A stretch of DNA of 64,000 nucleotides, from assembly GCF_024502345.1 (NCBI RefSeq), contig NZ_JALDNN010000001.1, one strand, 5' to 3'. The stretch's first letter is position 1; each line of letters starts with the position of its first letter. Source of the DNA: Escherichia coli. Its GTDB lineage: Bacteria > Pseudomonadota > Gammaproteobacteria > Enterobacterales > Enterobacteriaceae. Of this stretch, positions 3,676 through 50,770 are shown piece after piece. Under the pieces are notes generated by a model, which worked only from the letters and a program-made list of their open reading frames with translations, had not been told where the DNA came from and made no database searches. Made by a program: the position numbers and the translations under genes.

Positions 3676-6121
<2,446 letters not shown>

Positions 6122-45552: not shown

Positions 45553-46929
45553 TTATTGGTTTTCAGCCAGCTGACGATCGTGGCGACGCTTAAACATCCA
45601 GCCAATCAACAGCACAACAATCCACGCGAAACCGACATACAGCGAGATACGCGTATCCGGGTGATAACCAATCAACCCGATAATAAAGAGCAGGAAAATC
45701 AGCCCGCCGATGGTCGTTGCTACCCCACCCGGCACTTTAAATTTCAGCGCATTAACTTCTTCTGGCGGCAAACGGCGACGGAAGGCAATTTGCGACAGCA
45801 GGATCATAATCCACACCCACACCGTGGCGAAGGTTGCCAGCGAAGCGATCACCAGGAAGACGTTTTCCGGCATGATGTAGTTCAGATACACCGCAAACAG
45901 CAGCGCGGTAGTCATCACCAGCACCGTAACCCACGGAATACCGCGACGCGACGTTTTGCTGAAAATTTTCGGCGCGCTGCCCTGCTCTGCCATACCGTGG
46001 AGCATACGGCCTACGCCAAATACATCACTGTTAATTGCCGACAGCGAAGCAGTCAGCACAACAAAGTTAAGAATGCTGGCGGCAAAGGTAATGCCCATAT
46101 GCTGGAACGTCAGCACGAACGGGCTACCGGCAGTGCCAACCTGATTCCACGGGTAGATAGACATAATGACGAACAGCGTACCGACGTAGAACACCAGAAT
46201 ACGCATCGGCACGGAGTTAATCGCACGCGGTATCGATTTCTCAGGATCTTTCGCTTCACCGGCGGTAATCCCGATAATTTCGATCCCACCGTAAGCAAAC
46301 ATCACCATTTGCAACGACATTACCATGCCAAGCCAGCCGTTACTGAAGAAGCCGCCGTTGCTCCACAGGTTATGAATACCGGTCGGTTGCCCGCCGTTGC
46401 CAATCCCCCAGATGATGATGCCGAAACCGGCGACAATCATGATGATGATGGTGGCGACTTTAAAGAACGAGAACCAGAATTCCAGCTCACCGAAGACCTT
46501 CACGCTCATCAGGTTTACGGCGCAAATGATCAGCACCACGCTCAGTACCCAAATCCAGTGCGGCACCGTCGGGAACCAGACACCCATATAGATACCAAAA
46601 GCGGTCACATCGGCGATGGCGACAATAAGGATTTCAAAGCAGTAGGTCCATCCGGTAATGTAACCTGCCAGCGGGCCGAGGTTTTCCTGCGCATAACGCG
46701 AGAAAGAGCTGGCGGCCGGGTTATGTACCGACATTTCCCCCAGCGCACGCATAATGATATACGCCGCGATACCACCGATAATATAGGCCAACAACACGCT
46801 CGGACCGGCCATTTTGATGGCGTCTGCCGAACCGTAAAACAGCCCGGTGCCAATTGCTGAACCCAGTGCCATAAAGCGTATGTGGCGGGTACTTAGCCCA
46901 CGCTTTAGCTTGTTCTTACTTTCCATCAA
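45553..46929 (-). CDS. proY: proline-specific permease ProY (APC family)
   Basis: ORF track 458 aa ([23 protein letters not shown]); true start probably the second Met. Confidence 0.95.
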
Positions 46930-47001: not shown

Positions 47002-48321
47002 TTAGTGAGCGCTGGAGGTCACCTGACGACCTGCCGCGCGATCCCAGATAATGGCCAGAACCACCATCACCACTGTTGGCATTAACCACGCCAGACCTTG
47101 TTCGGCCAGCGGTAAACGCTGCGCCCAGGACGGTAAGATATCGCTGAATGCAGATGCTTTGATCCCGTCGAGAATACCAAAAAGCAGGCTGATAAACATC
47201 GGCGGAGCAATCACGCGGGACGAATTATGCCACCATGAGCGTGTAAAACTTAATACAACCAGTGCGATACACGGCGGATAAATAGCGGTCAGCACCGGTA
47301 CGGAGATCTGGATCAGCTGGCTTAAGCCGAGGTTAGAAACCACCATCGAGAAGCCGCCGAGGATAAACACCAGCGTACGATAAGAGAGCGGTACGTACTG
47401 GGCAAAGAATTCTGCACAAGCACAGGTCAGGCCAACTGCCGTTACCAGGCAGGCGATGAAGATTAACGCCGCCAGCAGGAAGCTACCGCCGCCGCCAAAG
47501 GTGTGCTGAACGTAAGCATGCAGAATAGCAGCGCCGTTTGCAGACTGATCGACCAGCGACGCGCTGTCTGAACCCAGACGGAACAGCGCCAGGTACAGCA
47601 GAGTCAGACCAACACCCGCCATCAGGCCAGCCCAGACGGTATAACGGGTCAGCAGACGCGCTTCGGTAACGCCACGAGAACGCGCCGCGTTAACAATAAC
47701 GATACCAAACACCATTGCGCCCAGCGTATCCATGGTCAGATAGCCGTTAACGAAGCCGTTAGAAAACGCAGCGTTTTGATAAGCCTCAGTCGCCGTGCTG
47801 ATAGAACCCGCCGGCCAGACAATCGCGGCAACAGACAGGATGACCAGCGCGATAATTTTCAGCGGCGCAAGGAAGTTGCCCACGGTATCCAGCAGCTTGC
47901 CCGGATAGAGCGAAACCAGAATAACGATAGCGAAATAGACCAGGCTGTAGATAAACAGCGGCAGCGCGGAATCACCAGTCAGCGGCGCAATCCCCACTTC
48001 AAAGGAAACGGTAGCTGTACGCGGCGTAGCGAAAAGCGGCCCCACCGCCAGGTAACAAACCGTTGCCAGCAGCACGCCAGCGACTTTACCGATTGGCGTG
48101 CTGAGGCTGTCAACACCGCCGCCAACTTTTGCCAGCGCCACTACCGTTAATACCGGCAGGCCAACGGCAGTAATGAGGAAGCCGAATGCCGCAGTCCAGA
48201 CGTGTTCGCCTGCCTGCAAGCCGACCATTGGAGGGAAAATAATGTTACCTGCGCCGACGAACAACGCAAATGTCATAAAGCCCAGAGCGATGATATCGCG
48301 CGATCTTAATTGATGGGTCAT
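47002..48321 (-). CDS. brnQ: branched-chain amino acid transporter BrnQ (LIVCS family)
   Basis: 439 aa polytopic [34 protein letters not shown]. Confidence 0.96.
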
Positions 48322-48674
48322 AAATCATACTGCCTGTGGATGTGGTGTTGTAACGTTAAATTTTTGTGCCAATCCCTGGGGATGATACAGCGGTATATTT
48401 AAACAATTTTAGCGGGAAATACTCCCAACCAGGCGCGGCGAAGAATAGTTTTTCGATTTACCGCGTTAATGCAGTCAGTATGACAGCACCTGAAGCGCAA
48501 TTTAAACGCTTATAACGTTTTAAAGCAAGGAGGGATCTAAAAACCAGAGGTATATAGCGATAAGAAATCACCAACCAGTATAAAACACTATTTCCGTGAA
48601 AAAGACATGGCTAATCATGCGAACAAAAAATCACCAACCGTTGTAAAATCTAACGCCCGTATTTTGACTGCAAA

Positions 48675-48702
48675 GAAAATAAGCCAGCATCGGCTGGCTT
48701 AT
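48675..48702 (-). terminator. phoR terminator hairpin
   Basis: aagccagc-atcg-gctggctt with T-run on the minus strand. Confidence 0.5.
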
Positions 48703-48727
48703 GGCAATAAAAGATGACAAAGGCGGA

Positions 48728-50023
48728 TTAATCGCTGTTTTTGGCAATTAAACGTTCCGGGATAACAAAACTGAAACGTGTTCCTTTTCCTACTGTACTC
48801 TCAATATTCAGGCGACTTTCGTGATGATTCACAGCATGTTTCACGATCGCTAACCCTAATCCGCTACCGCCGGTTTGCCGGGAACGCGCTTTATCAACGC
48901 GATAAAAACGCTCGGTCAGGCGCGGAATATGCTCCGCTGCAATGCCCGGTCCGTTATCTTCAACGCTAAATTCGGCACCGTGCGGCACTCGCTGCCAGCG
49001 TACGGTGATATGCGTGCCTTCCGGCGTATGATTCACGGCGTTATAGACCAGGTTCGAAATCGCACTGCGTAGCTGATCTTCGTTGCCAGACACCTTGAGG
49101 CCGCTATCTATCTCAAAGGTAAATGTCTGTTTTTTCTGACTCAGAGTCTGAGCCTCACGCTCAACAACGCGCAGCATCATCGGCACATCAACCTTTTCAT
49201 TGAGCAAATGCGTCGGTGCGGCTTCTATTTTCGACAGCGTCAGCAATTGCTTCACCAGCCCTTCCATCCGCTGGGTCTGCTCGCGCATGGTGTGCAACGC
49301 TTTTTCACGTACAGCCCCCTCCAGGGGTTGCTCATCCATCATCTCCAGGTAACCCTGTAACACGGTCAATGGCGTACGTAACTCATGGCTCACGTTGGCA
49401 AAAAAGTTACGCCGCGCCCCTTCCAGTTGATGCATTTGCGTGACATCACGCGCCACCATCAGCAACTGTTTGTGGGTATAAGGCATGACACGAATTTCCA
49501 GATGCCGCCCGGTGTTGAGCACCAGATTGAGCGGGCGAGAAAAATCACGCGTTTTCAGATATTGCGTAAACTCCGGGTAACGCAGCAGGTTAAGGATGTT
49601 CTGCCCATTATCTTCCGGCCAGCGCAAACCAAGAATCTGTTGCGCCAGACCGTTACACCAGAAAATACCGCCCTCTTCCGTGGTCAGCACCACTGCGTCG
49701 GGTAGCGACTCCGCGCCGCTACGAAAGCGTTTAATCAGATTGCCCAGTTCACGGCGGCGTTTTTTATTTCGCAGCTGCATCTGGTGTAAGCCGTATAGCA
49801 GCGGTTCCCAGCTACCACGCCCCGGTGGTGGGGTCATACTACGATCCACCCACAGCCACCATGAAAGGCGCAATAAATTCCAGAAATGCCAGATAAGCAG
49901 TCCCGTTACCGATGCCAGCAAAAACCAGGGTAGGTAACCAAAAAATGCACCCAGGATGAAAGCCGGGAGGCAGCAAAGTAGCAGCTCCAGCACCAGCCTT
50001 TTCCACGACAGCCGTTCCAGCAC
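48728..50023 (-). CDS. phoR: phosphate regulon sensor histidine kinase PhoR
   Basis: 431 aa ORF with H-box (HELRTPL) and HATPase domain; downstream of phoB. Confidence 0.97.
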
Positions 50024-50080: not shown

Positions 50081-50770
50081 TTAAAAGCGGGTTGAAAAAC
50101 GATATCCTGTACCGCGCACGGTCTGCACCATGCGGTCATGCCCGCCGGGCTCCAGTGCTTTACGCAGGCGACGAATGTGGACATCGACCGTGCGGTCTTC
50201 CACATACACGTTAGTTCCCCAGACGTGGTTTAACAGCTGCTCGCGGCTGTACACGCGCTCAGGATGCGTCATAAAAAAGTGCAGCAGTTTAAATTCTGTC
50301 GGCCCCATCTCCAGCGGCTCTTCGCCCGCCATCACCCGGTGAGATGTCGGGTCGAGACTTAATCCCTGCATCTCAATCACCTCTTCCACCGCCATTGGCG
50401 AAATACGGCGCATTACCGCTTTGATTCGCGCCACCAGCTCCTTCGGCGAAAACGGCTTGGTGATATAGTCATCCGCGCCGGTTTCAAGGCCGCGCACGCG
50501 ATCTTCTTCTTCCCCTCTGGCGGTCAACATCACCACTGGAATATCCCGGGTCATCGACTCGCGCTTGAGGTGTTTGATGAACTGGATACCGGAGCCGCCA
50601 GGTAACATCCAGTCAAGGAGAATTAAATCCGGCCAGGGTTCATTCAGTTGATTCACAGCACTGTCATAATCTTCCGCTTCGACCGGCTGAAAGCCATTTT
50701 GTTCGAGCACGAAGCAGACCATTTCGCGAATTGGAGCTTCATCTTCTACGACCAGAATACGTCTCGCCAT
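50081..50770 (-). CDS. phoB: phosphate regulon response regulator PhoB
   Basis: 229 aa [21 protein letters not shown] with receiver and winged-helix domains. Confidence 0.98.

Follow-up and report, generated by a model that had tools for sequence, protein, structure and literature searches.

The repeated sequence upstream of brnQ in the Escherichia coli DNA analysed here (one stretch of 64,000 nt, termed the window) is best read as part of the upstream control region of a sigma-70 brnQ promoter. This region carries four Lrp-type boxes, and Lrp bound there most likely tunes brnQ transcription; we give this reading a probability of about 0.6. The region is an ordinary and largely documented regulatory region, and its connection with Lrp has been published before. 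According to a paper from 2025, the regulation of branched-chain amino acid import in E. coli lacks definitive attribution (PMC12708883). With four phased boxes placed relative to a mapped transcription start site (TSS), a low-resolution SELEX peak becomes a promoter model that can be tested directly, which represents a modest gain.

The genes at this locus, proY (45553–46929), brnQ (47002–48321), phoR (48728–50023) and phoB (50081–50770), are all on the minus strand, and the 406-bp phoR-brnQ spacer (48322–48727) is therefore 3′ of phoR and 5′ of brnQ. The spacer is found in 5,424 of 5,426 complete E. coli genomes, many at 100% identity, and RefSeq has no annotated features within it, either in K-12 or in other RefSeq genomes. 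For comparison, 80 loci were retrieved with BrnQ as the query, one per enterobacterial species. phoR is immediately 5′ in nearly all of these, and most spacers are 397–426 bp in length. Longer spacers of 480–630 bp, compared with about 410 bp, are present at loci L041, L062, L076, L079 and L081; the genera with spacers of this length are Phytobacter, Intestinirhabdus, Cedecea and Buttiauxella.

The spacer is conserved across more than 25 enterobacterial genera, both in its length and, for long stretches, in its sequence. Conservation is strong in a 25-bp block (48630–48606), in a block at 48559–48532, throughout the core promoter, over a large part of the leader, and in a CA-rich stretch that precedes the start codon. 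Conservation on this scale exceeds what Lrp and GcvB explain.

The phoR intrinsic terminator hairpin was located by a terminator scan and as an inverted repeat at 48679–48702 (minus strand), which is about −188 to −211 relative to the brnQ TSS. It has a 10-bp stem (ATAAGCCAGC cgat GCTGGCTTAT) with TTTCTTT after it. In the alignment, the stem shows covariation between genera (AAGCCAGC / GGGCCAGC / AGACCAGC), in keeping with an intrinsic terminator. Escherichia sp. MOD1-EC7003 has a 746-bp insertion (locus L004, 1889–2634) within the loop of this hairpin, at the equivalent of window positions ~48687–48693. The insertion consists of about six tandem units of ~114 nt, and its spurious translation (…RRERLIRPTKHA…) is of the type usually seen with REP/BIME arrays.

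One brnQ TSS has been mapped in K-12, at position 418645 of U00096.2, with 54 reads and a 170-nt 5′UTR (Kim et al., 2012; PMC3415461, supplement). It corresponds to 48491 on the minus strand of the window, and the K. pneumoniae brnQ TSS aligns to it within 1 nt. A consensus sigma-70 scan called no promoter in the phoR-brnQ spacer, and the brnQ promoter was located via the published TSS data. This sigma-70 promoter (48500–48528, minus strand), placed by its position 5′ of the mapped TSS and by conservation, has a −35 element TTGCTT (48528–48523), a 17-nt spacer and a −10 element TTAAAT (48505–48500). Across more than 25 genera, the 34-bp core promoter (48500–48533), with the 17-nt spacer included, hardly varies. 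Inside the 17-nt spacer is an inverted repeat, AAACG-N7-CGTTT, which has a single occurrence in the window. The presence of this palindrome in the core promoter suggests an operator for a further, putative factor.

A second promoter was considered at a TATAAT-like conserved block (48556–48551). It was rejected because there is no −35 element, because the table of Kim et al. (2012) has no TSS for it, and because the block fits the Lrp-type box centred at −61, described below. E. coli also has a perfect sigma-54 −24 element, TGGCAC-N5-TTTAA, at 48371–48355 (minus strand), and an RpoN+NtrC SELEX peak (418832) has been published at a distance of about 65 bp. As a sigma-54 promoter this sequence was discarded, because the −12 GC is missing and other genera do not share the sequence.

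The first-pass annotation drew attention to a pair of direct repeats in the spacer. The sequence AAATCACCAACC is indeed present exactly twice in the 64-kb window, with the copies 63 bp apart, but its coordinates had been set 1 nt too far left. The proximal copy is at 48565–48576 and the distal copy at 48628–48639, both given on the plus strand; with the brnQ TSS at 48491, the copies are therefore at −74 to −85 and −137 to −148. The similar flanks that were reported around the copies are real, since the likeness reaches 24 nt at 83% identity (48562–48585, AAGAAATCACCAACCAGTATAAAA; 48625–48648, AAAAAATCACCAACCGTTGTAAAA).

An exact 12-mer direct repeat appears in 1.6% of Markov-1 resamples of the spacer. 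In the window, four exact 12-mer direct repeats less than 100 bp apart are observed vs 0.36 expected from a first-order Markov model, the other three being at 4994/5036, 17286/17340 and 53871/53970. The brnQ repeat is therefore unusual relative to random sequence, but by the standard of real genomic DNA it does not stand out.

Within E. coli, this exact 94-nt version is present in 3,329 of 5,423 complete genomes, and an imperfect distal copy, AAATCACCAATC, is found in 344 genomes, K-12 among them. Beyond E. coli, the exact 12-mer is absent from about 70 Enterobacteriaceae spacers, save for one copy in one Escherichia lineage. The proximal copy sits within the least conserved segment of the spacer and is altered in E. 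albertii and in another Escherichia species; the distal copy is conserved only in its promoter-proximal T/A tract. When the two 24-nt segments are compared in 64 Enterobacteriaceae spacers, Escherichia included, the within-species likeness is 10.9/24 vs a cross-species control of 10.4 ± 2.0. The similarity is 17–20/24 in all four Escherichia lineages and about 10–11 elsewhere.

A check of the repeats for conservation across Enterobacteriaceae had been proposed, and its outcome is that the 12-mers are not kept outside Escherichia; the relatives show neither retention nor co-variation of both copies, as would be seen with a conserved tandem operator. Parallel changes are found in two lineages: A>G at position 6 of both copies (48570, 48633) in about 141–151 E. 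coli genomes, e.g. 042 and ECA64, and C>T at position 11 of both copies (48575, 48638) in E. albertii. These could be due to gene conversion, to paired constraint, or to coincidence together with linkage; such parallel substitutions are not predicted if the core is functionless. As judged by these comparisons, the 12-mer core is specific to Escherichia and appears to have no conserved role of its own and not to be an operator. An exact repeat in a single genome has thus flagged a real regulatory region, and comparative data put the conserved signal in the flanks, not in the repeat.

The conserved signal in the flanks consists of matches to the Lrp SELEX consensus, YAGHAWATTWTDCTR, which was scanned from −200 to −35, anchored on the TSS, in 69 canonical-length spacers. 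The consensus string is attested in the Lrp literature and is said to go back to work by Cui and colleagues in 1995; it is degenerate and AT-rich. The mean per-position score from −200 to −35 is 6.61 ± 1.21 over the 69 spacers, and the background probability of a score of at least 11/15 is 0.0185 per position. Four of the five top-scoring positions in this interval are those centred at −61, −92, −124 and −157. Adjacent centres are 31, 32 and 33 bp apart, about three helical turns, a phasing of the kind expected of an Lrp-bound region.

The boxes have the form YRG-N9(AT-rich)-CYR. Box −61 (48545–48559) scores 10/15 in E. coli (CGCTATATACCTCTG) and 12–14/15 in most other genera (e.g. CAGATGATTATGCTA). 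Box −92 (48576–48590; TAGTGTTTTATACTG), with 13/15, is the top match in the E. coli spacer. Box −124 (48608–48622; TGGCTAATCATGCGA) scores 11/15 and is inside the conserved 25-bp block, and box −157 (48641–48655) scores 11/15 in E. coli (CGTTAGATTTTACAA) and is the weakest of the four across species. Scores of at least 11/15 are found in 90% of species at box −61, 77% at box −92, 58% at box −124 and 30–42% at box −157, and scores of at least 12/15 in 74%, 38%, 0% and 3%, with means of 12.0, 11.3, 10.4 and 9.2, respectively; because the species are related, these fractions are not independent counts. Box −92 keeps T1, G3, C13, T14 and R15 in 80–97% of unique sequences, and its cores are 53% identical pairwise (examples are the E. 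coli sequence given above, TGGCATATTATTTTG and CAGTTAATACGTCTG).

Shuffled spacers contain 1.06 matches of at least 12 per spacer, vs 3 observed in the E. coli spacer. As a positive control, the upstream region of ilvIH gives scores of 10–14 in the same scan, with the strong site TAGAATTTTATTCTG included. The E. coli brnQ boxes, at 10–13, and those of other genera, which reach 14/15 at −61, are thus comparable matches to the Lrp consensus.

The 12-mer copies abut the promoter-proximal edges of boxes −92 and −157. From the peaks of the consensus scan it follows that the flanks pointed out earlier, AGTATAAAAC at the proximal copy and GTTGTAAAAT at the distal copy, are boxes −92 and −157 themselves, and the repeat amounts to the likeness of box −92 and its promoter-proximal flank to box −157 and its flank. 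The 12-mer core has no match to the Lrp consensus. The proposal that the repeats are tandem sites for a regulator of brnQ is therefore right in part: the repeat overlaps the edges of two Lrp-type boxes, but its core is not a binding motif and is not conserved.

The near-invariant 25-bp block (48606–48630; TTTTTTGTTCGCATGATTAGCCAT in the brnQ sense) comprises box −124 and an A6 tract, and its anchor was found in 70 of 79 spacers. Neither this block nor the promoter palindrome has further copies in the window. The −124 block is far more conserved than recognition by Lrp, with its degenerate site, requires; this hints at a second factor or constraint, and a second factor is therefore possible. 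For the 12-mer and the −124 block, manual comparison with the consensus sequences of CRP, PhoB, NtrC, PdhR, ArcA, OmpR, PhoP, Fur and IHF gave no convincing match. The BaeR box consensus is TTTTTCTCCATDATTGGC (PMC3799227), and the −124 block agrees with it at 13/18 positions by manual count, which is a weak lead.

Lrp is the best candidate regulator for the phoR-brnQ spacer. It had been put forward as a plausible regulator of brnQ from the repeats, and the idea is right in substance, since a published Lrp peak falls in the spacer and consensus matches are beside each copy, although the 12-mer core is not the site. In the genomic SELEX-chip study of Lrp (Shimada, 2015; PMC5320599, supplement), a peak at 418534 is assigned to ‘phoR > > brnQ, brnQ-proY’. 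This position is equivalent to ~48602 of the window, or about −111, and is between the 12-mer copies and near the middle of the array of boxes. The screen was performed in vitro with ~100-bp resolution and is permissive: it yielded 314 spacers and took in 81% of amino acid transporter genes (PMC5320599). Physical binding of Lrp to the spacer is documented by this published in vitro SELEX peak. A search of the available literature for an in vivo effect of Lrp on brnQ expression found none. In an RNA-seq table, Lrp-controlled liv genes were down 3–7-fold on cystine exposure and brnQ was unchanged (PMC7373191); this may be taken as an indirect hint against strong Lrp control.

It is inferred from the box positions and the in vitro peak that Lrp contacts these particular boxes, with a resulting change in brnQ expression. 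Boxes about three helical turns apart are the layout for cooperative assembly of Lrp multimers, as at ilvIH and pap. At brnQ, Lrp multimers would occupy the four phased boxes upstream of the promoter, with box −61 at a class-I-like position, and bound Lrp would most likely tune brnQ transcription to nutrient status and to that of branched-chain amino acids. The low score of box −61 in E. coli, just 10/15, and the weakness of box −157 across species are caveats to this model.

Several features of the brnQ region resemble those of known systems. Both ilvIH of E. coli and brnQ are branched-chain amino acid genes with several degenerate Lrp-consensus boxes 5′ of a sigma-70 promoter, and in both the sites extend from about −40/−60 to beyond −150. 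ilvIH is activated by Lrp and has six upstream Lrp sites, whereas brnQ has four boxes, which are putative Lrp sites placed by sequence; unlike ilvIH, brnQ is already equipped with good −35 and −10 elements in its core promoter. With pap (and fim/daa), brnQ has in common a regular distance of ~31–33 bp between adjacent Lrp sites, and the pap spacing was reportedly found by Nou and colleagues in 1995 to be about three helical turns. In contrast to pap, the brnQ boxes contain no GATC/Dam switch sites, and brnQ has neither phase variation nor a PapI-like co-factor.

Operators of the OmpR/PhoB type also have direct repeats 5′ of the promoter, but these are 10–11 bp apart and conserved, whereas the brnQ repeats are 63 bp apart and Escherichia-specific. 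In manual comparison, the PhoB, BaeR, NtrC and CRP consensus sequences were poor matches to the brnQ repeats. Transport by LIV-II is classically less regulated than that by LIV-I. The LIV-I genes, livJ and livKHMGF, and brnQ belong to the same pathway, branched-chain amino acid uptake, and both are GcvB targets (PMC9299463). Like brnQ, livK (livKHMFG) is among the Lrp SELEX targets (PMC5320599). The livJ and livKHMGF promoters are repressed by Lrp and leucine. However, it was the liv genes that moved 3–7-fold in the RNA-seq data while brnQ did not (PMC7373191).

It is conceivable, though unlikely, that the conserved boxes and blocks are bound by a factor other than Lrp and that AT-rich dyads give rise to the Lrp-consensus matches incidentally. 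Such a factor might be a nucleoid-associated or AsnC-family protein, or a dedicated regulator of the −124 block and the core-promoter palindrome. Over more than 25 genera, the 25-bp −124 block and the 34-bp core promoter vary so little as to go far beyond what the Lrp motif needs; this speaks for such a protein, as do the agreement of the block with the BaeR box at 13/18 positions and the failure of brnQ to follow the liv genes in one Lrp-related perturbation (PMC7373191). On the other hand, the box array is where the published in vitro Lrp peak has its centre, and the 31–33-bp phasing, like the conservation of the YRG...CYR positions, is a fit to Lrp in particular. As to BaeR, the match requires a register shift of 2 nt upstream and is no better than sites that the authors themselves call putative (PMC3799227). 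The parallel changes in the 12-mers raise the question of whether the two 24-bp units are kept alike in Escherichia, either as paired sites for one multimeric protein or by short-patch gene conversion, with a lineage-specific function for the core. This is doubtful. The A>G change in both copies in about 141–151 E. coli genomes, the C>T change in both copies in E. albertii, and the similarity of 17–20/24 in four Escherichia lineages vs about 10–11 elsewhere would all be accounted for, but there are just two events, recognized post hoc, and the G alleles are 63 bp apart and may simply be linked in one clade. In addition, 344 genomes, K-12 included, have an unmatched change in one copy, concerted similarity is absent over the Enterobacteriaceae set as a whole, and the core is without a match to the Lrp consensus.

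A further explanation is that the repeat is a coincidence in AT-rich intergenic DNA and that nothing in 48563–48716 is functional but the phoR terminator. Four exact 12-mer repeats less than 100 bp apart in the real window sequence, and the lack of conservation of the 12-mers, agree with coincidence. Nevertheless, the spacer length (about 400–420 bp) and the internal blocks are conserved across genera in which BrnQ is only 83–95% identical, and Lrp binds to the spacer in vitro, which makes the absence of any function quite improbable. It is also very hard to credit that the 36-codon plus-strand open reading frame, MANHANKKSPTVVKSNARILTAKKISQHRLAYGNKR, encodes a real small basic protein. The frame exists and has the 36 codons and the translation originally given, but it had been placed 1 nt off and its true span is 48607–48717. 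It is intact in E. coli, E. albertii and one other Escherichia lineage, has been called a hypothetical protein in some older GenBank annotations, and has its first 8 codons within the conserved block. These codons, the shared ‘MANHANKK’, are the −124 DNA block read on the opposite strand. When anchored on that block, the frame is open for 7–51 codons across species, 12–13 in most genera, and the ATG is replaced by CCG, ACG, CTG, GCG or CCC in Kluyvera, Raoultella, Klebsiella and others, such that neither length nor start codon is conserved among relatives. Substitutions at codon positions 1/2/3 number 2/8/5 relative to E. albertii, the opposite of a coding pattern, and 3/6/2 and 5/6/2 relative to the other two Escherichia lineages; in none of these does the third position change most. 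As the first-pass annotation observed, there is no Shine-Dalgarno sequence, with no GGAGG-like motif in GTGAAAAAGAC upstream of the ATG, and the frame runs into the phoR terminator, where it crosses the hairpin antisense to it. The frame is unannotated in current RefSeq K-12 and other RefSeq genomes, and the plus strand has no known promoter or TSS. The variable length and start codon and the non-coding substitution pattern bear out the earlier opinion that the frame is probably spurious; it appears to be a chance open frame and not a gene.

The brnQ 5′UTR (48322–48490, minus strand) is a 170-nt leader, and just 5′ of the start codon it has an invariant CA-rich stretch, CAACACCACATCCACAGGC (48350–48332, minus strand). 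brnQ is a GcvB R1 target, verified in Salmonella and conserved in E. coli (PMC9299463). The CA-rich stretch is the probable target, where it would pair with the GU-rich R1; we infer the exact site. Rfam 15 covariance models gave no match within 48000–49000 at E ≤ 1, and RNAalifold gave no consensus structure for either strand of the upstream region, nor for the leader. Thus no RNA explanation fits the upstream region. A 16-codon leader peptide frame on the minus strand (48618–48568, MISHVFFTEIVFYTGW) was rejected, because it is 5′ of the TSS and in an unconserved segment.

The minimum free energy of the E. coli leader is no better than that of shuffled sequences (z = −0.16). Three candidate hairpins can be drawn by hand in the leader at 48393–48491 (minus strand), around a near-invariant 22-nt loop, UAAAUCGAAAAACUAUUCUUCG. 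With these hairpins, 76.7% of cells pair vs 38–51% when the partners are slid. Compensatory pairs are also present: at pair 36-64, 45 sequences have UA and 19 have CG, and at pair 12-28, 26 have AU and 21 have GC. Perhaps the near-invariant promoter and leader constitute an as yet undescribed operator, or an RNA element in the leader, by which Enterobacteriaceae control the uptake of branched-chain amino acids, but this is put forward tentatively and is on balance unlikely.

The leader also has a 12-nt inverted repeat that is 92% complementary (48472–48483 and 48325–48336), by which the 5′ end of the brnQ mRNA (GUCAUACUGACUG) can pair with the region just before the start codon (CAGGCAGUAUGA). 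The minimum-free-energy fold of the E. coli leader contains this long-range helix, and in the folded form predicted, the helix could mask the brnQ ribosome-binding site.
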